From assembly GCA_910585195.1 (NCBI GenBank), contig CAJUCX010000003.1, positions 1,828-65,827 on the forward strand: 64,000 nt of DNA. The letters are read 5' to 3'. Below are positions 2,175-57,106 of the stretch, piece by piece. Positions within the stretch are counted from its first letter, which is position 1, and every line of letters begins with the position of its first letter. The DNA is from an uncultured Christensenellaceae bacterium. GTDB lineage: Bacteria > Bacillota > Clostridia > Christensenellales > CAG-314. A program made the position numbers and the translations under genes. A model generated the notes under the pieces. The model saw only the letters and a list, made by a program, of their open reading frames with translations, did no database searches and had not been told where the DNA came from.

Positions 2175-4358
2175 ATGTCAGACTTATTACTCATCATCGT
2201 GGGTGCTGCCGTAATACTTGCTCTTTCTTATGCGTGCTTCAACTTCTTTATGGTAAAGAAAATGAAAGAAGGCACCGACAGAATGCAGGAAATTGCAGGC
2301 GCAATCCGCATAGGCGCAAATGCGTTTATCCGCTATGAATACAAAATTGTTGCGATAATAGGCGCGGTTGTTGCCGTAATACTCGGCGTGCTTATCAGTT
2401 GGCAGACGGGCGTTTCGTTTATCTTAGGTGCAACGCTGTCGGCAACCGCAGGCTTTGTAGGAATGAAAATCGCAACGTACAGCAACGTGCGCGTTGCAAA
2501 CCAAGCAAACGAAACCCGCGACCTAGGCAAAACGCTTAAAGTTGCGTTTAAGGGCGGTTCGGTAATGGGCTTGTGCGTTGCAGGCTTTGCGCTTTTGGGC
2601 ATAATTATCGTATACCTTGTGTTCGGCGTGGCATTGGGACAGATAAACGACGTAATCGAAGGAACGGTTCAAAACAGCATAATCTTCCCTGCACTTGAAA
2701 CGTCCTTTACTATGACGGTGTCGGGCTATGCGCTCGGCTGCTCGATAATTGCGTTGTTCAACCGCGTAGGCGGCGGCATTTATACAAAAGCCGCGGATAT
2801 GGGCGCAGACCTCGTAGGCAAAACCGAGGCGCACATACCTGAGGACGACCCGAGAAACCCTGCAACAATTGCAGACAACGTAGGCGACAACGTAGGCGAC
2901 GTTGCTGGACTTGGCAGCGACTTGTTGGAAAGCTACGTCGGCGCGATTATGTCTGGCGTAATTCTTGCGTGCGAAATGTTTTTGCACGGGCTTGCGATTT
3001 CTGCGGAATTGCTGCATACGCTGTTGCTCTTCCCTATCGTTTTTGCAGGCTGCGGACTTTTGAGTTGTATAATAGGCATCTCTTACATAGTGTTAAAGCG
3101 CAAACTGTCAAGCAACGTTCATATGGAACTTAACGTTGCAACGTGGATTTCCGCCGCAATGTCGGTCATCTTGTGTTTTGTGATAAGTTTCTTTATATTC
3201 AAAGACTTCCCACAGGAAGAACTTGGGTTGCTAGGTTTCAGACTCGGCAACATATCTCCGTTTTTAGCGGCAGTGTTTGGTATTGCGGCAGGTATTTTAA
3301 TAGGAATCGCGTCGGAATACTACACAAGCTATGACTATAAACCTACCAAAAAAATTGCAAACTCGTCAAAAGAAGGTCCTGCACTTACTATCACGCAAGG
3401 TCTTGCAACGGGTATGATAAGCTGTATGATACCTGTGGTTATCTTAGGTGTGGCAATATTCGGTTCTTACCTTGTTGCCGGAATGTACGGCGTTTCGTGT
3501 GCGGCGCTTGGTATGCTGTCTTTTGTTGCAGCAACCGTTGCTGTCGACACTTACGGACCTATCTCGGACAATGCCGGCGGCATTGCAGAAATGAGCAAAC
3601 TCGACCCGGAAGTAAGAGAAATTACAGACAAACTCGACAGCGTAGGCAACACCACTGCGGCAATAGGCAAAGGTTTTGCAATAGGCTCTGCGGCGCTTGC
3701 GGCACTGTCTCTTATGAACTCTTACCTTTATGCATTCGGCGGAGTTGACGCTCTCGGCAACATTTTGCTTAACATAGTAAATCCGCTTACTCTCGTAGGC
3801 GCACTGTTCGGCGCGGCATTGCCGTTCTTGTTCTCGGGCATGCTTATAGAAGCAGTTGCAAAAGCGGCGCGCAAAATGGTTGACGAAGTGCGCAGACAGT
3901 TTAACGAAATACCGGGGCTGCTTGCAGGCGAAGCAATGCCTGACTACAAAACTTGTATAGAAATTTCTTCTCAAGGCTCGCTTAAAGAAATGCGCTTCCC
4001 TTGCGTATTGGCAATACTCTTCCCTATCGTTTCGGGCTTTGTATTCGGCGCGCAATTTGTAGGCGGCTTGCTTATCGGCGCAACGATAACGGCAATTATG
4101 CTTGCGCTCTTCTGCGGAAACTCGGGCGGTGCTTGGGACAACGCAAAGAAATTTATTGAAAGCGGCGGCGTAATGGGACACGGCAAAGGCTCCCCTGCAC
4201 ACGACGCATCTATCGTCGGCGACACCGTAGGCGACCCGCTTAAAGACACCGTCGGCCCGTCCCTCGATATACTCATCAAAATTATGTCTACCATCTCTCT
4301 CATAGCGGTAGTAATTTTCAGCCAATATAACTTGTTTGGCGTTTTGGGTATTATTTAA
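2175..4358 (+). CDS. hppA: Membrane-integral H+/Na+-translocating pyrophosphatase
   Basis: Motifs GGGIYTKAADMGADLVGK, DNVGDNVGD, GNTTAAIGKGFAIGSAAL and DTVGDPLKDT in a polytopic protein. I moved the start to ATG 2175, which follows AGGAGA. Confidence 0.93.
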   Translation: MSDLLLIIVGAAVILALSYACFNFFMVKKMKEGTDRMQEIAGAIRIGANAFIRYEYKIVAIIGAVVAVILGVLISWQTGVSFILGATLSATAGFVGMKIATYSNVRVANQANETRDLGKTLKVAFKGGSVMGLCVAGFALLGIIIVYLVFGVALGQINDVIEGTVQNSIIFPALETSFTMTVSGYALGCSIIALFNRVGGGIYTKAADMGADLVGKTEAHIPEDDPRNPATIADNVGDNVGDVAGLGSDLLESYVGAIMSGVILACEMFLHGLAISAELLHTLLLFPIVFAGCGLLSCIIGISYIVLKRKLSSNVHMELNVATWISAAMSVILCFVISFFIFKDFPQEELGLLGFRLGNISPFLAAVFGIAAGILIGIASEYYTSYDYKPTKKIANSSKEGPALTITQGLATGMISCMIPVVILGVAIFGSYLVAGMYGVSCAALGMLSFVAATVAVDTYGPISDNAGGIAEMSKLDPEVREITDKLDSVGNTTAAIGKGFAIGSAALAALSLMNSYLYAFGGVDALGNILLNIVNPLTLVGALFGAALPFLFSGMLIEAVAKAARKMVDEVRRQFNEIPGLLAGEAMPDYKTCIEISSQGSLKEMRFPCVLAILFPIVSGFVFGAQFVGGLLIGATITAIMLALFCGNSGGAWDNAKKFIESGGVMGHGKGSPAHDASIVGDTVGDPLKDTVGPSLDILIKIMSTISLIAVVIFSQYNLFGVLGII

Positions 4359-4812: not shown

Positions 4813-5427
4813 TTAAATATTGATTACCTTTTGAGCGCCGCTCATGGCTTCTACAATGTCGTACATATTGCAGATTTCCCCTACGGAAACTTGGTCTTTA
4901 ACTTTGAAGTAGTCTGCGCAAGTGCCGCAAATGCGTATTTTGGTGCCGCGTTCTTCCATAACTTTAATATCTGCCAGAGTGTTGGCGTCTTTTAACGTAA
5001 GTTTAACGCCGCTGTTGAAAAATACGACTGCCTTTGGCGGAACTTCCAACTGCGAAAGAGAAAAGATAAAACCTTTTATAAGTATCTTGCCGAGTTCTTC
5101 GCTGCCGTGCCCCATTTGGTTTTGACTTATGGCAACAACCAAACCGTTGCCCGACGGCGCCGAAACCGTTGTTTGTTGGCTAACTTCAACTTCCTGCGCC
5201 TGACCTGCGCCAACCGTGATAGTAACCGCATAGTCCTTGTCGGCGCGTTTTACTACGTCGCACTTGTAACCTTTGCTTGCCGACATTTTGCTTAAATTGT
5301 CGCAGGCAATTTGGTTGTCTACAAGCACTTGCACTGCGCCGCCTTCCTGCGGAAACTTTGCAATTACTTTTTTTGCTTCGATAACTGGTCTGGGACAAAC
5401 CCAACCCATTGCGTCGATAATTTCCAT
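4813..5427 (-). CDS. yedF: YedF-type selenium metabolism protein (TusA/SirA-like N-terminus plus DsrE-like C-terminus)
   Basis: 204 aa. N-terminal CPRP motif (GWVCPRPVIEAKK) as in TusA/SirA. An AGAGG ribosome-binding site precedes the ATG. Confidence 0.8.
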   Translation of the reverse strand: MEIIDAMGWVCPRPVIEAKKVIAKFPQEGGAVQVLVDNQIACDNLSKMSASKGYKCDVVKRADKDYAVTITVGAGQAQEVEVSQQTTVSAPSGNGLVVAISQNQMGHGSEELGKILIKGFIFSLSQLEVPPKAVVFFNSGVKLTLKDANTLADIKVMEERGTKIRICGTCADYFKVKDQVSVGEICNMYDIVEAMSGAQKVINI

Positions 5428-5429
5428 AA

Positions 5430-6593
5430 CTATTTACCTCTTTTTAATAAAATTCGTTTTATACCGCGGACGGCCGTGTCGACTTCTTCCTGCTTGTTGA
5501 AGTGGGAAAAGGAAAATCTGACCGCTCCCGTCCGTTGCGTACCCAAAGTTTTGTGCATAAGCGGCGCACAATGCGCTCCTGCCCTTACTGCAATACCGTA
5601 TTCCTGCCAAAGCATATCCGCCGCGTCGCCGCTGTCAATTCCGTCAAGATTAAGCGCAACGACAGGCGTCCTTACCGAGGCGCCGACGTCGCCGTAAAGA
5701 GTAACGCCGTCAATACATTCGACTTGTTTTATAAAATTTCTTGCTAATATATCGGCGTCGTCAAACAGACTAGAACTATTGTTTTGCTTGTTTGCTTTGC
5801 CTGTAAATATTTTTTCGTTAAACTTCTCTACGTAAGTTATGCCAGCAAGCAAACCCGCTATGCCGTGTGCGTTTTGCGTGCCTGCCTCCAAAGCATCGGG
5901 CATTAAATCGGGGTGCGTGGGAGAAAACGATTCGCTGCCGCTGCCGCCTATAACGAGCGGCTGCGGTTTGAAGTCTTGTCCCAAGCAAATACCTCCCGTG
6001 CCCTGCGGTCCGTAAAGCGATTTATGCCCGGAAAAGCACAGCGCCGATATATTTGCTTTTTGCATATCTATTGCAAGCAAGCCGGCAGTCTGCGCACAGT
6101 CTGCAATAAACCTTACGCCCTCTTTTTTGCAGATTTCGCCTATGGCATAAATATCGTAAACGTTGCCGACAAGGTTTGACGCGTGGCAAGTAACCACCGC
6201 TTCGGTTTCGCTTGTGATGGCGTCTTGCAACTTATTTAAGTCCAGTCTGCCTAGTTTGTCGTTTTGCACCACGGTAAAATTGCCGTGTCTATACACAGGG
6301 CGCAATACGCTGTTGTGCTCTGCGCAGGTGGTAACAATGTTTCCTTTAACGGAAGATATGGCAATATTAAGCGCGGCGGTTGCATTTTGAGTAAACGCCA
6401 CGTCCATTGCGTTTTTGACGTTAAACAACTTTGCAACGGCAAAACGCGCTTTCATAAGCGTACGCAAACCGTTAAGCGACGCGTCATAAGACCCGCGCGA
6501 CGGGTTTCCGCAAGTGTTAAGAGCGTTTGCGATTTCTTCCGCCACCTGCGGCGGCTTTGGCATTGTCGTTGCGGCGTTGTCAAAATATATCAT
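5430..6593 (-). CDS. Class V aminotransferase: cysteine desulfurase / selenocysteine lyase family
   Basis: 387 aa. FSGHKSLYGPQGTG is the PLP-lysine region, and HCAPL near the C-terminus holds the catalytic Cys region. It ends 2 nt before the yedF start. Confidence 0.85.
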   Translation of the reverse strand: MIYFDNAATTMPKPPQVAEEIANALNTCGNPSRGSYDASLNGLRTLMKARFAVAKLFNVKNAMDVAFTQNATAALNIAISSVKGNIVTTCAEHNSVLRPVYRHGNFTVVQNDKLGRLDLNKLQDAITSETEAVVTCHASNLVGNVYDIYAIGEICKKEGVRFIADCAQTAGLLAIDMQKANISALCFSGHKSLYGPQGTGGICLGQDFKPQPLVIGGSGSESFSPTHPDLMPDALEAGTQNAHGIAGLLAGITYVEKFNEKIFTGKANKQNNSSSLFDDADILARNFIKQVECIDGVTLYGDVGASVRTPVVALNLDGIDSGDAADMLWQEYGIAVRAGAHCAPLMHKTLGTQRTGAVRFSFSHFNKQEEVDTAVRGIKRILLKRGK

Positions 6594-46641: not shown

Positions 46642-46871
46642 TTAATTTTTCCTCCAAACTTATACGGAACGGGGTCAAAACCGCCTTTCGACCACGGCCC
46701 GCATTTAAGAAGCCTTTTTGCGGTTAAATAACTGCCTTTGAAAAAACCGAAGCTTTTGTATGCTTCCATAGAATATACCGAACAAGTCGGATAAAAAATA
46801 CAGTTTTTTCCTATCAAAGGGGACAGCGTAATTTTATAAATTTTAAGCAAAAAAATACAAATCCAACGCAT
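46629..46871 (-). CDS. yidD: Membrane protein insertion efficiency factor YidD
   Basis: 80 aa. YK.TLSPL.G..C.F.PTCS.Y motif. Confidence 0.9.
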   Translation of the reverse strand: MRWICIFLLKIYKITLSPLIGKNCIFYPTCSVYSMEAYKSFGFFKGSYLTAKRLLKCGPWSKGGFDPVPYKFGGKIKWVL

Positions 46872-46872
46872 A

Positions 46873-47205
46873 TTAACCTTTGTTTATTTTTTCTATCAAA
46901 AAATCAGCCGACTTCTCCAACTGTGCAAAAGTCACTGGTTTTTCGAGTGTTCTCGGCAAAAATATATAATTATATTTTGTGTTAAGAAAATTGTAACGCT
47001 TGTTTATTATTTCTTTAAGTCTGCGTTTTACTTTATTTCGTTTTACCGCTTTGCCGTACTTCTTACTGACGGAAAAACCGATTTTAGGTTTGCCGTTTTT
47101 GTTATGGCAAAAAACTATCACTAAGTTTTTGTCGTTTACCGACTTGCCGTTTTTATAAACGTAATTAAATTGATAGTTTTTTCTTAACCTATATTGTTTT
47201 TCCAT
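46873..47205 (-). CDS. rnpA: Ribonuclease P protein component
   Basis: 110 aa, basic. KAVKRNKVKRRLKE is the RNR-like motif. Confidence 0.9.
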   Translation of the reverse strand: MEKQYRLRKNYQFNYVYKNGKSVNDKNLVIVFCHNKNGKPKIGFSVSKKYGKAVKRNKVKRRLKEIINKRYNFLNTKYNYIFLPRTLEKPVTFAQLEKSADFLIEKINKG

Positions 47206-47219
47206 TTTTACCTTTTTTA

Positions 47220-47354
47220 TTATGCGGAAAGGTTATGTCTGCCTTTTGCTCTTCTTCTTGCAATAACGTTTCTTCCGCCTTTGCTTCTCATTCTTTGTCT
47301 AAAACCGTGCACTTTGCTGCGTTGTCTTTTTTTAGGTTGATAAGTTCTTTTCAT
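47220..47354 (-). CDS. rpmH: 50S ribosomal protein L34
   Basis: Absent from the ORF track because it is under 60 aa. My translation is [51 protein letters not shown] ribosome-binding site. Confidence 0.92.
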
Positions 47355-47494
47355 TTTTTTCCTCTCTTATTTTTGCAGGGAATTACCCAATATATTTTCA
47401 TTCTGTACTAGTATATATTAAATTTTATCTACTGTCAAGGAGATTAAAAATACACATATCTATGCCTTTTTTAATTTTAAGCATAAATTTATCT

Positions 47495-47532
47495 AAAAAA
47501 AGCAAGGTTGATATAAATTATCATTCCTTGCT
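47495..47532 (-). terminator. Terminator after dnaN
   Basis: AGCAAGG-18 nt-CCTTGCT with a T6 tail on the minus strand. Confidence 0.6.
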
Positions 47533-47571
47533 TTTATCGCTTCATAATATTTTTTTTATAATTTTAATTTT

Positions 47572-48675
47572 TTACACTATGCGTACCGGAAGTATGAGAT
47601 ACAAATATTCTTCTTTGTCGCAAGGGGTTATTACGCAAGGGTTTACCGGCGTGTTTAGGTTTATCTTTATAAACTCGTCGTCAACCGCCTTCATACAATC
47701 CAACAAATAACGGGAGTTAAAGGCAATGGTCATATCTTTGCCTACCAAATTTATTGCGATGCTTTCCTTCAAATTTGCGCCGTCGTCGCTGTTGGAAATT
47801 AAATTTACTACGTTTTCTTTAATATCGAGTTTTACGAGGTTGTTTTTTTCCAAACGGGAAAGTATGCTTGCTCTGTCGAGACTGTTTTTGAATTGGTCTT
47901 TATTTATAATTACGTTGGTATCGAAATCGGTAGGTATGATTTGCTTATAGTTTATGAAATCACCCGAAAGCAAGCGGGTCATTATCATAGTATGTTCCAA
48001 ATCTACCATAAGGAAGTTGTTTTCTACTTTAACATGTATTATATCGTCGCTGTCGTCCAAAAACTTGTTAAGTTCGTTAAGACTGCGCGCAGGTACTATT
48101 ACGCTCATCTTTTCCGCTTTTTGTTCCAAAGGTTTGTTTACCATAGCAAGACGGTAACCGTCAAGAGCAACCGCACTTATTTTGTAATCTTCCGCCTCAA
48201 ACAAACAACCTTTAAGCGTAGGCCTGCCTTCGTCCACAGAAACGGAAAATATGGTTTTTGTTATTAAATCTTTAAGTTCTTTGGAAAGTATAACAAAACC
48301 TTTTGCCGATTCTATCCTTTCGAGTTCCGGATATTCTTCCACAGGGAAGCATTTCTTTTCTACTTCGCCGTCGGTGTATTTTATTTTAAGTTTCTGACTG
48401 TCGTCCAAAGAAAGTTCTATTTGCTCGTTGGTAAGCATTTTTACAAGCTCGCCGAAAAATTTGCCCGGCACGACGGTTTCGCCTTCGACCAAAACTTCCG
48501 CATTTATTTTCTTTTCTATCGCAAGTTCCAAATCTGTGGCAAACAACGTAAGACAATCGTCTTTTGCCGTAAGTTTAATACCTTCCAAAATAGGAGAAAC
48601 GTTTTTGCTGTTTAAGGCTTTTGTTACTTTAATTACGGCGTCGCTGAGTTCTACGCCCTGACAGATAAGTTTCAT
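47572..48675 (-). CDS. dnaN: DNA polymerase III beta sliding clamp
   Basis: 367 aa, three-domain clamp. MKLICQ...L...V.K....K...PIL.GI.L start and a LILPVRI-type C-terminus. AAGGAG ribosome-binding site. Confidence 0.95.
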   Translation of the reverse strand: MKLICQGVELSDAVIKVTKALNSKNVSPILEGIKLTAKDDCLTLFATDLELAIEKKINAEVLVEGETVVPGKFFGELVKMLTNEQIELSLDDSQKLKIKYTDGEVEKKCFPVEEYPELERIESAKGFVILSKELKDLITKTIFSVSVDEGRPTLKGCLFEAEDYKISAVALDGYRLAMVNKPLEQKAEKMSVIVPARSLNELNKFLDDSDDIIHVKVENNFLMVDLEHTMIMTRLLSGDFINYKQIIPTDFDTNVIINKDQFKNSLDRASILSRLEKNNLVKLDIKENVVNLISNSDDGANLKESIAINLVGKDMTIAFNSRYLLDCMKAVDDEFIKINLNTPVNPCVITPCDKEEYLYLILPVRIV

Positions 48676-49043
48676 TTATTTAAGGCTCCTTCAAAAATTT
48701 TTCGTAAGTTTAATTTATTATATTCAAAAAGCAGCAGCAGTAGTAGAGAGTGTTAAGTTGTGGAAAACTTTTTTGCAACTGCTTTTATTTATTGACGAAA
48801 TACATTATAAATGAATTGAAAAAAAAAATCAATACAATATATAGTCGGTATTAAAAAAATCAACAAAATTTTTTTGTTTATAAGTTGTGAAAAAGTATAA
48901 AAAACAATGTTAAAAAGTTGTGTATAAAAAGAAAATATATCAAAAACAGTTGTAAATAAATTATTGATTTTTTTCGGCAGTTGTGTATAATTAAAGTCCC
49001 TACATTTTGCAAACGGTAAAATTTATATAAAGGAAAATTAAAA
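48676..49043. other. Chromosomal replication origin (oriC): DnaA-box cluster, DnaA-trio-like repeat and AT-rich tract
   Basis: TGTGNAWAA-type 9-mers lie at 48759, 48886, 48919 (perfect), 48951 and 48982 (perfect), all in the same orientation. CAGCAGCAGTAGTAG lies at 48732-48746 next to the AT-rich tract 48690-48730. Gene strand bias flips here. Confidence 0.8.
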
Positions 49044-50378
49044 ATGGACGTCAGAGAATTGTGGCAAAAAATGCTGGACGAACTTGAAACGACACTTCCG
49101 GCTTTGGGTTTCGACACATTGGTTGAAACAACCGTGCCTGTAAGTATAACAGACGGCAAACTTATACTTTGCACAAACAGCGAAGTAAGCAAAAGTCTTG
49201 TTCAAAAAAGGTTTGCACAACAAATAAGACTGGCTATGCAAATGGTGCTGCCTATGCTTGACGACGTAGAATTTATTACGGAAGCGCAAAAAGATTTATA
49301 TATAAATAAAGAAGAAGTTTTAAGACCGGTCTGCCACAATTTTGAAGAAACGGTATTTATAAAGAAATATACGTTCGACAATTTCGTAGTAGGCAAATCC
49401 AACGAGTTTGTAGCCGCTGCTGCAAGGGCCGTATCGGAAGCACCCGGCAAAAAATTCAATCCGTTGTTTATATACGGCGGAGTGGGACTCGGCAAAACGC
49501 ACTTACTGCACGCAATAGGCAATCATTTAATGAAAAGCAAGCCTAAATTCAAGACGCTGTACGTAAGTTGCGAAAAATTTACCAACGAACTTATAGAAGC
49601 CATAAGAGACACCAACGAAGCAAAAAAAGCGTTTAGAGAAAAGTACCGCAGTTGCGACGTGCTTATGATTGACGACATTCAGTTTGTATCCAAAACCGAC
49701 GCCACCCAGGAAGAATTGTTTCATACTTTCAACGACCTTTACAGCGCGGAAAAGCAAATTATCATAAGCAGCGACCGCCCACCGAAAGAAATTCAGCATT
49801 TGGAGGACAGATTGCGCACGCGTTTTGCGTGGGGTATGATTGCCGACATAAAACCGCCTGATTTAGAAACGAGAATTGCCATTTTGCAAAAAAAGGCAAG
49901 CGAGCAAAACGCAAACGTAAGCAACGACATATTAAAGGTTATTGCAAACAACGTGCAGACCAACATAAGAGATATGGAAGGTTTGCTTACTAGGGTTATA
50001 AGTTACGCATCGCTTATAAACCACTCGGTAATAGATATGGACGTTGTTAAAGAAGCGTTAAAAGACTACACCGACGATCAAAAGGAAATGATTTCCGTAG
50101 ACAATATTATAGACGCCGTTACGGAGTATTTCAGCATAGATAAAGAGGCGTTGGTAGGCAAAAAGAAAAATAAAGAAATTGTAGAACCGCGTCAGATATG
50201 TATATATCTCATCACAGAGTTTTTGACTTTGCCGTTGGTTAAAATAGGAGAAGTCTTCGGCGGAAGAGATCATACAACCATATTGCACGCGCGCAATAAA
50301 ATAGAAGAGCAGTGTAAAACGGACGGCAGAATTTCCGTATACGTAAAAGATTTGAAGGATATGCTCCTTAAAAAATAA
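49044..50378 (+). CDS. dnaA: Chromosomal replication initiator DnaA
   Basis: 444 aa. GGVGLGKTHLLHAIG Walker A and a C-terminal DNA-binding domain (GGRDHTTILHARNKI). Confidence 0.97.
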   Translation: MDVRELWQKMLDELETTLPALGFDTLVETTVPVSITDGKLILCTNSEVSKSLVQKRFAQQIRLAMQMVLPMLDDVEFITEAQKDLYINKEEVLRPVCHNFEETVFIKKYTFDNFVVGKSNEFVAAAARAVSEAPGKKFNPLFIYGGVGLGKTHLLHAIGNHLMKSKPKFKTLYVSCEKFTNELIEAIRDTNEAKKAFREKYRSCDVLMIDDIQFVSKTDATQEELFHTFNDLYSAEKQIIISSDRPPKEIQHLEDRLRTRFAWGMIADIKPPDLETRIAILQKKASEQNANVSNDILKVIANNVQTNIRDMEGLLTRVISYASLINHSVIDMDVVKEALKDYTDDQKEMISVDNIIDAVTEYFSIDKEALVGKKKNKEIVEPRQICIYLITEFLTLPLVKIGEVFGGRDHTTILHARNKIEEQCKTDGRISVYVKDLKDMLLKK

Positions 50379-50505
50379 TTTTTTCGCGTTTTTTCCGCCC
50401 GTTGTCTGTATTTATGTTTTATAAAAAATAATATATTTTTCGTTGTTAAAACCGCGCTTTGTTTTCCCGTCGACAGACTAAAACCGCGTTAAAAAAATTA
50501 ATAAA

Positions 50506-51603
50506 ATGTTTGTAAGAAGTATTACGGTAAAAAATTACAGAAATTTGGATTACCAAAAAGTAGAGTTGCAAAAGGGGTTAAACGTCTTTTGCGGACTCAA
50601 CGCGCAAGGAAAAACAAATTTTTTGGAGTGTATCGTATTGAGTTCTCTCGGCAAATCTCCGCGTACCGACAGAGACAAAGAACTTATAAACTGGGACAAA
50701 GACTGGGCGCAGATAAAGACTGTTTTTTGCACCGAAACAACCGACGGAGAAATAGAAATAAAACTAAGCAAGGCAGAAAAAAAACGCGTCGCGGTAAACG
50801 GGTTGCCGTTAATAAAAATAGGCGAGTTGTTGGGGTGGTTAAACGTAATTTATTTTTCGCCCGAAGAAATAAAAGTCATAAGAGAAGGTCCCGACGCAAG
50901 ACGCCGTTTTATGGATATAGACCTCTGCCAGACGGACAAAAATTATTTTTATACGCTAAACAGATACAACAAAATTTTGACGCAGCGCAACAATTTGCTC
51001 AAAAAAGAATTTCAAAACAAAGACCTTAAAGAAATGCTTTCCATTTGGGACAAGCAGCTTGCCAAAGAAGGCGCAAAACTTTTTATAAAGCGCAAGGACT
51101 TTATACAAAAAATTGCACCGATAGCGCAGGAAGTGCATAAAAAACTGACCGATGGCAAAGAAGAAATGCACTTGATATATCAGACGGAAATGCAAGGGGA
51201 AACTGCGGCTCAGGCGGAAGAATTTTTGACGGACAAACTGTCTCAGACTTTCGACAAACAGTTGAAGTTGGGGTTTACCGCCAACGGCGTGCACAGAGAC
51301 GACGTCAAGTTTTCCGTCAACAACGTAGATATACGCAAATACGGTTCGCAAGGACAGCAGCGCACGGCGGCGCTTACGCTAAAAATAAGCGAAGTAAAAT
51401 TGCTTAAAGAAATCATCGGCGAGTACCCCGTATTGTTGCTTGACGACGTTTTCAGCGAAATCGACGCATTGCGCCGCAGACGGCTGTTGGAGTACACAGC
51501 GGACATTCAAACGGTGCTTACCGCAACGGAGTTTGAGACAGAACTTGCAAACGGCATACCTTACAAAAAATTTACCGTATCGAACGGCAAAATAAGCGGA
51601 TAA
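50506..51603 (+). CDS. recF: DNA replication and repair protein RecF
   Basis: 365 aa. GLNAQGKTNFLE Walker A, GSQGQQRT signature and LLLDDV Walker B. Confidence 0.93.
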   Translation: MFVRSITVKNYRNLDYQKVELQKGLNVFCGLNAQGKTNFLECIVLSSLGKSPRTDRDKELINWDKDWAQIKTVFCTETTDGEIEIKLSKAEKKRVAVNGLPLIKIGELLGWLNVIYFSPEEIKVIREGPDARRRFMDIDLCQTDKNYFYTLNRYNKILTQRNNLLKKEFQNKDLKEMLSIWDKQLAKEGAKLFIKRKDFIQKIAPIAQEVHKKLTDGKEEMHLIYQTEMQGETAAQAEEFLTDKLSQTFDKQLKLGFTANGVHRDDVKFSVNNVDIRKYGSQGQQRTAALTLKISEVKLLKEIIGEYPVLLLDDVFSEIDALRRRRLLEYTADIQTVLTATEFETELANGIPYKKFTVSNGKISG

Positions 51604-51610
51604 AAAAACA

Positions 51611-51645
51611 ACAGCGGATTTTATAAAATCCGCTGTTTTGGTTTT
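51611..51645 (+). terminator. Terminator after recF
   Basis: ACAGCGGATTTT-AT-AAAATCCGCTGT followed by T-rich sequence. A second hairpin, CGCGATTGT..ACAATCGCG, lies at 51656-51679. Confidence 0.75.
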
Positions 51646-51682
51646 TATTAAAAACGCGATTGTTTATGACAATCGCGTTTTT

Positions 51683-51895
51683 TTAATATTCTTTTCGTCC
51701 GCACAAAACGTCAATGCTAATGTCAAAAAAATCCGCAATCTTCCAACACTCTATAATACTCGGCTCTATTAAACCTTGTTCCCAACGCGACAAATTTGCC
51801 TGACTTGTGTTTAATTCTTTTGCAAGTTGCCGCTGGGACAGATTTTTTAATTTTCTGAATTCGGCAATTTTATTGTTATCGAAGTTATACTCCAT
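51683..51895 (-). CDS. XRE family helix-turn-helix transcriptional regulator
   Basis: 70 aa. LSQRQLAKELNTSQANLSRWEQG is a classic Cro/C1-type HTH. Confidence 0.8.
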   Translation of the reverse strand: MEYNFDNNKIAEFRKLKNLSQRQLAKELNTSQANLSRWEQGLIEPSIIECWKIADFFDISIDVLCGRKEY

Positions 51896-51906
51896 AATTT
51901 TATGAT

Positions 51907-51950
51907 ATACAAAAATGTATCAAATTACTTTATAGATACATATTTGTATC
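51907..51950. promoter_or_regulatory. Two operator-like inverted repeats in the divergent XRE / membrane-protein promoter region
   Basis: ATACA-AAAA-TGTAT at 51907-51920 and GATACA-TATT-TGTATC at 51935-51950. Confidence 0.5.
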
Positions 51951-51986
51951 ACATAATGATTTACAAATACATAGGAGGAGATTGTT

Positions 51987-52214
51987 ATGGACAATCAAAA
52001 TTTGGTACGTTTTTTACTTACTTTCTTTTTGGGGTGGATTGGCAGTATAATTATCAATCACACTTCATTAAAGCCGGACGGATTTACTTCCAGGTCGTTG
52101 GCATATTTCTTTTTATCTATAATAACGTTTGGCGTTTACGGTTTGGTGGCTTCTATTTGCAATTTAACGTTTGACCCTAATAAGGAAAGAAACATCGGTT
52201 ACAAAAAAGACTGA
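51987..52214 (+). CDS. Small two-TM membrane protein
   Basis: 75 aa. AGGAGG ribosome-binding site 8 nt upstream. Two hydrophobic helices. Family not recognised. Confidence 0.5.
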   Translation: MDNQNLVRFLLTFFLGWIGSIIINHTSLKPDGFTSRSLAYFFLSIITFGVYGLVASICNLTFDPNKERNIGYKKD

Positions 52215-52621
52215 TTTTTTGTAAAAGATATACACAAAACAAAAGCGCGCTTATATAAGCACGCTTTTGTTTTGTGGTAAGGTAGGGTGCAGAAATAAAA
52301 TTTTTTATTATAAAAATTTGAAAACGACGCGGAAAACCGAAAAAATTCACAGGCGAAAGGAAAAAAGCGAAAAACAGCAAGCCATTTTTGTCAATCGGCA
52401 AAATATTTCCGTTTGTAAGCAAAATAAAGGGCTTAAAAAGGCATACGAAAAAATTAAGACAAAAAATTTAATTAAATCGCCTTAAAATACAAGCCAAAAA
52501 CGCTATGTTTGTGGTATAATAACAAAAAATTGCTTGCTTATGCAGAGAACTCTTTTCTGTCTGCGGCGCGTTATGCACAATCTCGTTTGAAAAAAGATAA
52601 TTTTGCAAACGAGACGCTTAA

Positions 52622-54583
<1,962 letters not shown>

Positions 54584-54601: not shown

Positions 54602-57106
54602 ATGAAAAAAGTAGAAAACAGTCATTCAATAGAATATCAAAAAGCTTTGGAAAACACCAAAGTAGTAAAAATCAACGTAGAAGACGAAATGAAAAAATCG
54701 TTTATTGCCTATGCAATGGCGGTAAACGTATCCCGTGCAATTCCTGACGTAAGAGACGGACTTAAACCGGTACACAGAAGAATATTGTACGCTATGGGCG
54801 AACTTAACTTGACAAACGACAAACCGTACAGAAAGTGTGCCCGTATCGTCGGCGACGTTTTGGGTAAATACCACCCGCACGGCGACAGTGCAGTTTACGA
54901 CGCGCTCGTGCGTTTGGCGCAGGACTTCTCTATAAACGAGCCGCTTGTAGAAGGTCAAGGCAACTTCGGTTCCGTCGACGGCGACCCGCCTGCGGCGCAA
55001 AGGTATACCGAAGCAAAACTGTCAAAAATCGCAAGCGAAATGCTTAGAGATATAGACAAAAACACGGTAGACTATTACCCTAACTTCGACGAAACTTTGG
55101 AGCAGCCCGTTGTTTTGCCGTCGAGATTTCCTAACCTTTTGGTAAACGGCTCGGACGGTATAGCAGTAGGTATGGCAACCAACATACCGCCGCACAACTT
55201 AAACGAAGTTATCAACGGCGTAATCGCAACGATAGACAATCCGGAAATCACCGTTGACGAACTTATGACGATTATCCCGGCGCCTGACTATCCTACCGGC
55301 GGCATACTTATGGGCAGGGCGGCAGTGCGCCACGCTTACAAGACGGGGCACGGCGGCATCATCATAAGAGCCAAAGCAGAGATAGAAGAGTTCAACAACG
55401 GCACGCGCAATCGCATAGTCGTTACGGAATTGCCGTATCAGGTAAATAAGGCAAAACTTATAGAGACCATTGCCGATATGGTAAAGAACAAGCGTTTGGA
55501 GGGTATTTCCGACATTCACGAAGAATCCGACCGTTTGGGTATGCGTATAGTTATCGACGTCAAAAAAGACGCCAACGCGCAGGTAGTGCTCAACGCGCTG
55601 TATAAGCATACGCAAATGCAAATTTCCAACGGCATAAACTTGCTTGCGCTTTCCGACGGCGAGCCTAAGGTATTAAACCTCAAAGAAATTATTCAGCAAT
55701 ACGTAGCACACCAAAACGACGTTATTTTGCGCCGTACCAAATACGATTTGGAAAAGGCGGAAGAAAAATGCCACATTTTGGAAGGTCTGGTAATAGCGCA
55801 GGACAATATCGACAGAGTAATAGAAATCATCAAAAAGTCGGAAGACAAAAACGTCGCAAAAGGCAAGTTGATGCAGGAGTTCGGTTTGACGGACAAGCAG
55901 GCAACGGCTATTTTGGAAATGCGCCTGCACAGACTCACCAGTCTTGAAGTCGAAAGTCTCAAAAACGAACTTGCAGAACTTAAAAATTATATCGCAGAGC
56001 TTAAAAGCATTATCAAAAGTCCTGCCAAAGTTGCGGAAATCATCAAAACGGACCTTCGAGAAATAAGCGAAAAATACGGTACACCGCGCAAGACGGAAAT
56101 TTCTATGGACTACGGCGAGATAGACATCGCCGACTTGATTGAAAAAGAAGACGTAGTAATTTCCATGACGCACTTCGGTTACGTTAAGCGCATACCTGTT
56201 GCGGAATACCGCACTCAAAAACGCGGCGGCAAGGGCGTTACCGCACATAAGACCAAGGAAGAAGACTTTGTCGAGCAAATGTTTGTGTCTAGTACACACG
56301 ACGATTTGCTGTGCTTTACCAACAAGGGCAAAGTTTACAACATCAAGGCTTACGAAGTGCCGGAAGCGCAAAAGACGGCAAAAGGCAGGGCAATAGTAAA
56401 CTTGCTGCAACTGACGGAAGGCGAAAAGGTAACGACAATAATACCTATTCAAGAAGGAGCAACGCTGCAAGGCAACTTGCTTATGGCGACTAAAAACGGT
56501 CTTATCAAAAAGACAGACCTAAATGAATTTTCGTCAATCCGCAAGGTCGGCAAAATTTGCATTTCGCTTGTAGGCGAGGACGAACTTATTGCGGTATCTA
56601 TGACGACGGGTTACGACGAAATTTTGGTTGCAAGTCATATGGGCAAGTGCATAAGATTCAGCGAAGAAGAAATCCGCGCAATGGGTCGCGAAGCGCAAGG
56701 CGTACGCAGTATGAAACTTGCCAAAGACGACTTCGTAACCGATATGGCAATCATCAAGAGCGGTTACGAAGTGCTTACCGTAAGCGAAAGCGGCTACGGC
56801 AAACTTTCCGACGTGTCGGACTACCGCTTGCAGGCAAGGGCAGGCAAAGGTATAAAGGCGGGCGTATTCAACAAAAAGACCGGCAACCTCGTCAATCTTA
56901 AACTTGTAAGCCCTGACGAAGACGTTATGCTTATTGCCGACAACGGCGTTATAATCCGCATACGCGCAAATGAAATATCCAAGATAGGCAGAGATACTTT
57001 GGGCGTAAGAGTAATGAAGTTTAAGGACAACGCCAAAGTGGTTTGCGTTGCAACTACACCGCACAATGCCGACGAAGTTGAAGGCGGCGAAGAAACTGCG
57101 GAATAA
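54602..57106 (+). CDS. gyrA: DNA gyrase subunit A
   Basis: 834 aa. [26 protein letters not shown], the YHPHGD QRDR region, and C-terminal beta-pinwheel repeats. Confidence 0.97.

Follow-up and report, generated by a model that had tools for sequence, protein, structure and literature searches.

The sequence analyzed here is a 64,000-nt stretch of contig CAJUCX010000003.1 (the window, whose positions serve as coordinates throughout) from an uncultured mouse-gut Clostridia bacterium that is nearest to Candidatus (Ca.) Heteroclostridium caecigallinarum and is present in mouse-gut metagenomes of many studies. Its subject is a probable replication origin, a 368-bp spacer from which dnaN and dnaA diverge. 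The open reading frame (ORF) list and Pfam matches give the order rpmH(-), dnaN(-), the spacer, dnaA(+), recF(+) and, further on, gyrB and gyrA (Table 1). With < and > for genes pointing left and right and a slash for the origin spacer, this order is written rpmH< dnaN< / dnaA> recF>. The encoded DnaN is 89% identical to that of Ca. Heteroclostridium caecigallinarum.

Read in the dnaN sense from the dnaA start, the spacer holds the dnaA promoter, five DnaA boxes, the dnaN promoter, a further box, a 12-nt spacer, a run of DnaA-trios, an AT-rich tract, and the dnaN ribosome-binding site and start. One of the five boxes (48982-48990) overlaps the -10 element of the dnaA promoter, and dnaA is therefore probably autoregulated. 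The trio-proximal box, TTTTCCACA, is followed by a weak second box, CTTAACACT, and on the opposite strand the trios read 3'-GAT GAT GAC GAC GAC GAA. A basal unwinding system (BUS) has been defined as a DnaA box, a spacer of at most 16 bp and at least three trios with a central A (3'-NAN-5') (PMC8287927). In the window these places are taken by TTTTCCACA, 12 nt and six or seven trios, the distance falling inside the 10-13 nt peak of box-to-trio spacers (PMC8287927), and an AT-rich tract stands beyond the trios as in the BUS layout (PMC8287927, PMC7561715). This tract is a candidate DNA-unwinding element. As in bipartite-type origins, the module made up of box, spacer, trios and tract lies directly upstream of dnaN and points to it. 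With respect to dnaN the module keeps its canonical place and polarity, and so it is dnaA that has turned relative to the origin. The initial annotation had described dnaN as displaced to the other side of oriC; that description does not hold, as the module has the polarity seen in Bacillus and Clostridioides difficile and its linkage to dnaN is kept in the two nearest clades.

The same spacer is the densest 400-bp bin for DnaA boxes in the 64 kb. It contains four of the 12 exact TTWTNCACA matches in the window, all on the minus strand, as well as three of the 14 sites with at most one mismatch from TTATCCACA and six of the 225 with at most two, where 1.3 would be expected. No site within two mismatches of TTATCCACA was found in the dnaA-recF spacer, and the rpmH-dnaN spacer has just two such sites, each with two mismatches. 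Across the window, GC skew stays below zero from ~10 to 48 kb and above it from 49 to 60 kb, changing sign at 48-49 kb, with a cumulative minimum of -3.79 at 47-49 kb. Within the 64 kb, boxes and candidate unwinding element thus share one intergenic region at the skew switch, as in a monopartite oriC, and every box and trio element falls in that one spacer, which makes the origin single-part. The two box clusters split by dnaA that define a bipartite origin are missing; there is a single cluster, between dnaN and dnaA.

Transcription was assessed from metatranscriptome contigs rather than reads. Single ~1.25-kb RNA contigs cover dnaN in two studies (X26, 47526-48784; X27, 47538-48783), and a third run (X29) has a dnaN contig with the shared 3' end at 47540, so that in all three runs the contigs stop by the terminator. 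The rpmH RNA contig is distinct from that of dnaN and ends at 47351. The dnaN-only contigs show dnaN to be monocistronic, and because its promoter lies upstream of the box and trios, transcription of its ~120-nt leader passes through box, trios and AT-rich tract. No X26, X27 or X28 contig was found between ~48785 and the dnaA leader, and 48785-48873 is covered by no contig in any metatranscriptome run except X25, which is labelled 'RNA?' and has contigs spread evenly as in DNA. The dnaA RNA contigs begin at 49016 (X27) and 49039 (X29), and one X31 contig covers 48874-49157, which fits the putative distal dnaA promoter. The dnaA-recF spacer shows no stable hairpin or terminator (z = +0.39), and a second X31 contig (50271-50794) runs from the dnaA 3' end across the 127 bp into recF. 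It is probable that dnaA and recF are co-transcribed; recF takes the place of dnaN downstream of dnaA.

The other claims made for this arrangement in the initial annotation stand. The divergence of dnaN and dnaA across the origin is real, as judged from ORFs, Pfam and collinear contigs, and each gene is co-directional with its own fork, dnaN with the leftward replichore. dnaN is monocistronic with its own terminator, supported by RNA contigs of two studies and by the hairpin with U7, and has its own promoter too. Co-transcription of dnaA and dnaN is indeed removed, dnaN having a separate transcript uncoupled from the dnaA promoter. The dnaA-recF spacer was correctly said to lack DnaA boxes, and the boxes and trios were correctly placed in one spacer as a single-part origin. 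With the order rpmH< dnaN< / dnaA> recF> and a separate dnaN transcript, the gene order and dnaA-dnaN operon of bipartite-type origins are missing as well.

Table 1. Features of the window around the dnaN-dnaA spacer
Feature	Position	Strand	Basis or detail
yidC, yidD	left of rnpA	-	ORF list, Pfam
rnpA	46873-47205	-	ORFs, Pfam
rpmH (ribosomal protein L34)	47220-47354	-	Pfam PF00468, E = 1e-22
rpmH promoter TTGACA-17-TATACT	47438-47410	-	promoter scan, 11/12
dnaN intrinsic terminator	~47491-47535	-	10-bp stem GCAAGG...CCUUGC + U7, -15.9 kcal/mol, z = -2.73
dnaN (DNA polymerase III beta clamp, 367 aa)	47572-48675	-	PF00712, PF02767, PF02768, each full length
dnaN-dnaA spacer (368 bp)	48676-49043		ORF list
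dnaN ribosome-binding site GGAG	~48686-48690
AT-rich tract	48725-48693		between trios and dnaN ribosome-binding site; read from sequence
6-7 DnaA-trios	48746-48726	-	dnaN-sense 5'-CTA CTA CTG CTG CTG CTT (TTT)
Trio-proximal DnaA box TTTTCCACA	48767-48759	-	12 nt from first trio
dnaN promoter TTGATT-17-TATAAT	48832-48804	-	promoter scan; upstream of trio-proximal box and trios
Putative distal dnaA promoter TTGAAA-18-TATAGT	48816-48845	+	promoter scan; back to back with dnaN promoter
Five co-oriented DnaA boxes	48875-48990	-	starts 48875, 48886, 48919, 48951, 48982; mostly 31-33 bp apart
Proximal dnaA promoter TTGATT-16-TATAAT	48964-48991	+	promoter scan
dnaA (444 aa)	49044-50378	+	DnaA_N, AAA+, helix-turn-helix; PF00308 1e-69, PF08299, PF11638
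dnaA-recF spacer (127 bp)	from 50379
recF	50506-51603	+	ORFs, Pfam
XRE gene	51683-51895	-	ORFs, Pfam
orf90 (90 aa)	51902-52174	+	ORF list
gyrB	52625-54583	+	ORFs, Pfam
gyrA	54602-57106	+	ORFs, Pfam

Taken together, these observations make it likely that the dnaN-dnaA spacer is the chromosomal replication origin, monopartite and arisen by fusion, in which the functional core of a Bacillus/Clostridium-type origin has been kept upstream of dnaN while dnaA has been inverted relative to that core. DnaA would occupy the phased array (48875-48990) together with the box at 48759, and would then oligomerize onto the trios and open the AT-rich tract beside the dnaN start. Forks would leave co-directionally, the left with dnaN and the right with dnaA-recF-gyrBA. 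The five-box array would double as dnaA operator and as the distal sub-region that in Bacillus subtilis acts by looping. Historically, the canonical order rpmH / dnaA-dnaN-recF could have been converted to that of the window by two inversions, of which one would have turned only dnaA and the other the whole dnaA-oriC-dnaN block, and which would have fused the dnaA promoter and its operator boxes (the equivalent of oriC1 or incAB) with the unwinding module in one spacer.

Several points weigh against this interpretation. The view of GC skew is limited to 64 kb, and the skew turns negative again past 60 kb, where genes lie on the minus strand. None of the spacer boxes matches TTATCCACA perfectly, and the trios include CTG (3'-GAC-5'), which is off the 3'-[G/A]A[T/A]-5' preference. 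The RNA contigs are unstranded, which makes transcript ends approximate and the strand a matter of interpretation, and the genome may hold a second dnaA, dnaN or origin elsewhere. Finally, monophyly of the genomes with the window order is not rejected (approximately unbiased (AU) p = 0.37), and either the window order or the L003 order may therefore be the older.

For comparison, 53 related loci were collected and mapped with the window's proteins, and trees were built for DnaN and for DnaN, DnaA and RecF concatenated. Each gene order forms a single clade on both trees, and the seven dnaA/dnaN/recF states need just six changes. The order rpmH< dnaN< / dnaA> recF> recurs in Ca. Heteroclostridium caecigallinarum from chicken (L001) and in L002, L033 and L035, which with the window make up its immediate clade. 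That the layout might be lineage-typical, which the initial annotation had named as grounds for withdrawing its claim of an unusual arrangement, is borne out for this immediate clade and fails for the wider group, in which it is one of at least seven fixed orders. The arrangement is thus fixed and inherited in its lineage, and is not a switch. At ~80% DnaN identity, L003 has rpmH< dnaA< / dnaN> recF> gyrB>, which is the canonical order with dnaA alone flipped, and L004 shares its left half with recF inverted. In both, the dnaN-dnaA spacer is homologous to that of the window, with the whole dnaA-oriC-dnaN block inverted. The trio-proximal box, the trio run CTACT(A/G)C... and the dnaN promoter TTGNNN-17-TATAATGTAT are conserved in the window and L001-L004, and in each of these five genomes dnaN has the unwinding module before it. 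In L003 and L004, the rpmH-dnaA spacer contains boxes that were considered as remnants of oriC1; this reading was rejected, as they do not exceed the AT-rich background. The inverted recF of L004 (L004:7312-8400; dnaN> recF< versus dnaN> recF> in L003) lies near a contig end; recF may have been inverted singly in a further event, or the assembly may be at fault locally.

A sister clade, comprising Ca. Limadaptatus and many human-gut contigs of up to 245 kb, has five orders: parB< parA< / dnaN> dnaA< recF>; parA> parB> dnaN> dnaA> recF>, in a sub-clade where parAB and dnaA are both flipped; recF< dnaA> dnaN> (L021, L047); dnaA< recF> dnaN>; and dnaN> parA> parB> recF>. The first, with the module before dnaN, is found in L005, L006, L008, L013, L018-L020, L031, L032, L036-L042, L044, L046, L048, L049, L051 and L052 (dnaN at 6001 or 4001), and its clade (Ca. 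Limadaptatus and relatives) is common in human-gut metagenomes. In this order dnaA is convergent with dnaN and would be met head-on by the fork moving right, at most ~1.2 kb from the origin. The last order is seen in L007:149-4540, where no dnaA lies between dnaN and recF. At the relatives' loci, which are 7-13 kb long, noise in the GC skew prevented the origin of the dnaN> dnaA> recF> type from being located. L007, L009, L011, L012, L016 and L030 are titled "uncultured Bacteroidaceae bacterium", yet on the DnaN tree they group within the Clostridia clade, whose origin module they also have; the taxonomy of these records looks wrong.

A strict box-plus-trio regular expression matched the window only, and direct reading of the regions upstream of dnaN together with a tolerant core-motif search was needed for the relatives. 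By this approach a core TTTTCCACTTGTCAACA, then CTTATTTATGCTATTATTATTAAAAA, was found 71-121 nt before the dnaN start and on the dnaN strand in 40 of 40 sister-clade loci, whichever gene lies upstream. Counted over all loci, dnaN is immediately preceded by parA< (22), dnaA< (7), dnaA> (5), parB> (4), rsmG< (4), parB< (3), rsmG> (1) or recF> (1), and in five there is no gene within 1.5 kb or the contig ends. A more distant group, Ca. Scatosoma and relatives (L024-L029), has dnaN> rpmH> followed by rnpA-yidD-yidC-jag as in the window, with no dnaA within 6 kb. Here the rsmG-dnaN spacer of L024-L028 is 0.9-1.4 kb long and box-rich. Box-trio-like sequence lies directly upstream of dnaN in L024, in L025-L029 the 200 nt upstream of dnaN show nothing but a promoter, and core-motif or strict box-trio matches occur 600-840 nt upstream of dnaN in L025, L027 and L028.

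These relatives include candidate intermediates of the two inversions, namely L003 (rpmH< dnaA< / dnaN> recF>, with the left half in L004) and L021 and L047 (recF< dnaA> dnaN>). On the concatenated tree, L003 and L004 stand beside the window and inside the genomes of its type, with support of 90/95. Slightly favored is an ancestor with a flipped block, recF< dnaA> module dnaN> rpmH>, from which a flip of dnaA would have given the window type and then a flip of the block the L003 type. In the window, neither dnaA nor dnaN nor the block is bordered by inverted repeats above background.

An identical end state could in principle have been reached had dnaN, alone or with the module, moved as a cassette to the rpmH side in one translocation-inversion, with dnaA never inverted, the route implied by the initial annotation. 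The unit of module and dnaN lies next to many different neighbors in relatives, and could thus be movable. We consider this route unlikely, however, since both simple inversion intermediates exist among the relatives (L003/L004; L021/L047), the dnaA/dnaN spacer is homologous in both block orientations, and the unit in the window is bordered by no repeats, transposase or recombinase. Two nested inversions ending in intergenic spacers are the simpler route.

That replication starts elsewhere, with the box cluster merely regulating the divergent dnaA and dnaN promoters, is very improbable. The skew was indeed seen in a 64-kb window only, and oriC is separated from dnaA in some bacteria, such as Escherichia coli (PMC4285127). 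However, the skew sign change and a strand switch of ~50 kb of genes coincide with the spacer, which holds a complete conserved module of box, 12-nt spacer, trios and AT-rich tract, and parS sites and the origin-proximal block parAB-rsmG-mnmGE-jag-yidC-rnpA-rpmH adjoin it.

There is even less reason to regard the dnaA-oriC-dnaN block as a reversible switch between the window and L003 orders within populations. Both orientations do occur in close relatives at ~80% DnaN identity, and L003 dnaA is bracketed by 104-nt inverted repeats. Against this, the block borders in the window have no inverted repeats, orientation tracks phylogeny with no mixing inside a clade, and Logan contigs of four metagenomes contain no well-supported inversion joints. 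The sole odd joints are two low-depth X5 contigs, one with a 2077-bp skip and a 22-nt side (depth 14.7) and one with a backward joint (depth 5.2), both typical of other organisms or repeats. Flanking repeats, a recombinase and both orientations in one population, the marks of an invertible segment, are therefore all missing. The L003 repeats (3657-3760 and 5327-5430; 80% complementary, with an additional 18-nt perfect pair) are lineage-specific dispersed hairpin elements, and the copy by the dnaA start is inserted sequence that the window, L001, L002 and L004 lack.

The weakest alternative is that assembly or binning produced the layout, through a chimeric join or a contig placed in the wrong orientation at 47.4 or 48.7 kb. 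The sequence is metagenome-assembled and AT-rich spacers can break assemblies, but Logan contigs of four independent DNA studies, some from strains with 9-31 differences, follow the window collinearly at both junctions, and the same order recurs in L001, L002, L033 and L035 from different hosts and assemblers, which leaves this account next to no credibility. The collinear contigs run over the rpmH-dnaN, dnaN-dnaA and dnaA-recF junctions (X1, 46800-51000, with 0 differences; X13, 46800-50017; X5, 47325-50215; X8, 47325-51000), and X25 is likewise collinear over 47329-49400. The misassembly or inversion at these two points that the initial annotation had held in reserve against its own claim was thus not encountered.

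Beyond the origin, the XRE gene and 90-aa ORF between recF and gyrB (51604-52624) are not present in L001 and L002, and the recF-gyrB spacer measures 1021 bp in the window versus ~360 bp in L001 and ~230 bp in L002. By this comparison, the stretch is a species-specific insertion. A 26-nt palindrome (52233-52276) and a hairpin (51602-51645) resemble bidirectional terminators.

The locus is a real, lineage-typical variant of a known origin system and reveals no new mechanism. Work on B. subtilis and C. difficile takes the rpmH / dnaA-oriC-dnaN layout, with a two-part origin and a dnaA-dnaN operon, as the Firmicute norm. The lineage described here and its relatives are natural experiments off that norm, with fused clusters, dnaN uncoupled from dnaA autoregulation and a module that never leaves dnaN, and they raise the question of which origin features are truly constrained. 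They also bear on origin prediction, where programs expecting dnaA and then dnaN can mis-orient or miss the unwinding element, and they offer concrete layouts for reconstruction in B. subtilis strains sustained by oriN.

More interesting than the single locus is the wider pattern, in which dnaA and its neighbors are shuffled and the module keeps its link to dnaN. We tentatively suggest that, among uncultured gut Clostridia of a family- to order-level group, the part of the origin that does not vary may be the unwinding module with dnaN, not dnaA with oriC; that dnaA, parAB and recF may have been re-oriented or moved around this unit at least six times; and that in abundant human-gut lineages dnaA may lie head-on just downstream of dnaN. 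If true, a separate upstream box cluster and dnaA-dnaN co-transcription would be dispensable in nature, and box-rich spacers beside the origin would be hotspots of small inversions. The link between module and dnaN would itself be selected, for example if transcription from the dnaN promoter over the unwinding tract helps or tunes opening.

The closest functional parallels are found in B. subtilis and C. difficile. In B. subtilis, the incC module occupies the dnaA-dnaN interval, and distal boxes are situated on the side of dnaA (PMC6669920); such boxes act by looping and tolerate repositioning (PMC6669920, PMC8287927). The window shares with B. subtilis oriC one or more trio-proximal boxes, a short spacer, trios and an AT-rich tract directly upstream of dnaN and pointing at it, as well as extra distal boxes, here 120-230 bp away, and boxes at the dnaA promoter that suggest autoregulation. 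It differs in having one 368-bp origin spacer instead of two (incA/B upstream of dnaA, incC between dnaA and dnaN). Being inverted, dnaA does not lie in a loop between two box clusters. A dnaA-dnaN operon is also lacking, the window dnaN having its promoter upstream of the module, and rpmH follows dnaN while recF follows dnaA. C. difficile, of the same bacterial class, has TTWTNCACA-type boxes and, in oriC2 (the dnaA-dnaN spacer), the trio run 5'-CACCTACTACTATTACTACTATGA-3' (PMC7561715), to which the window's run (CTACTACT...), likewise upstream of dnaN and after DnaA boxes, is very similar. The C. difficile origin is bipartite, with oriC1 between rpmH and dnaA and oriC2 between dnaA and dnaN, and unwinding in vitro needed both (PMC7561715), whereas the window has its two clusters side by side, with dnaA transcribed divergently.

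With respect to gene order, Borrelia burgdorferi was considered as a precedent and rejected, as it is gyrB that diverges from dnaA there, dnaA and dnaN being co-directional with oriC between them (PMC9879097). A literature search found no paper on this divergent dnaA/dnaN arrangement in Clostridia. Deinococcus radiodurans, in which dnaN presumably lies on the opposite strand to dnaA, is a published precedent for the dnaN / oriC / dnaA layout. Its oriCI has 13 DnaA boxes between dnaN (DR_0001) and dnaA (DR_0002), upstream of dnaA (bioRxiv 10.1101/2020.03.25.007906), and differs from the origin described here in belonging to another phylum, in its many perfect boxes on both strands and in its flanking genes.

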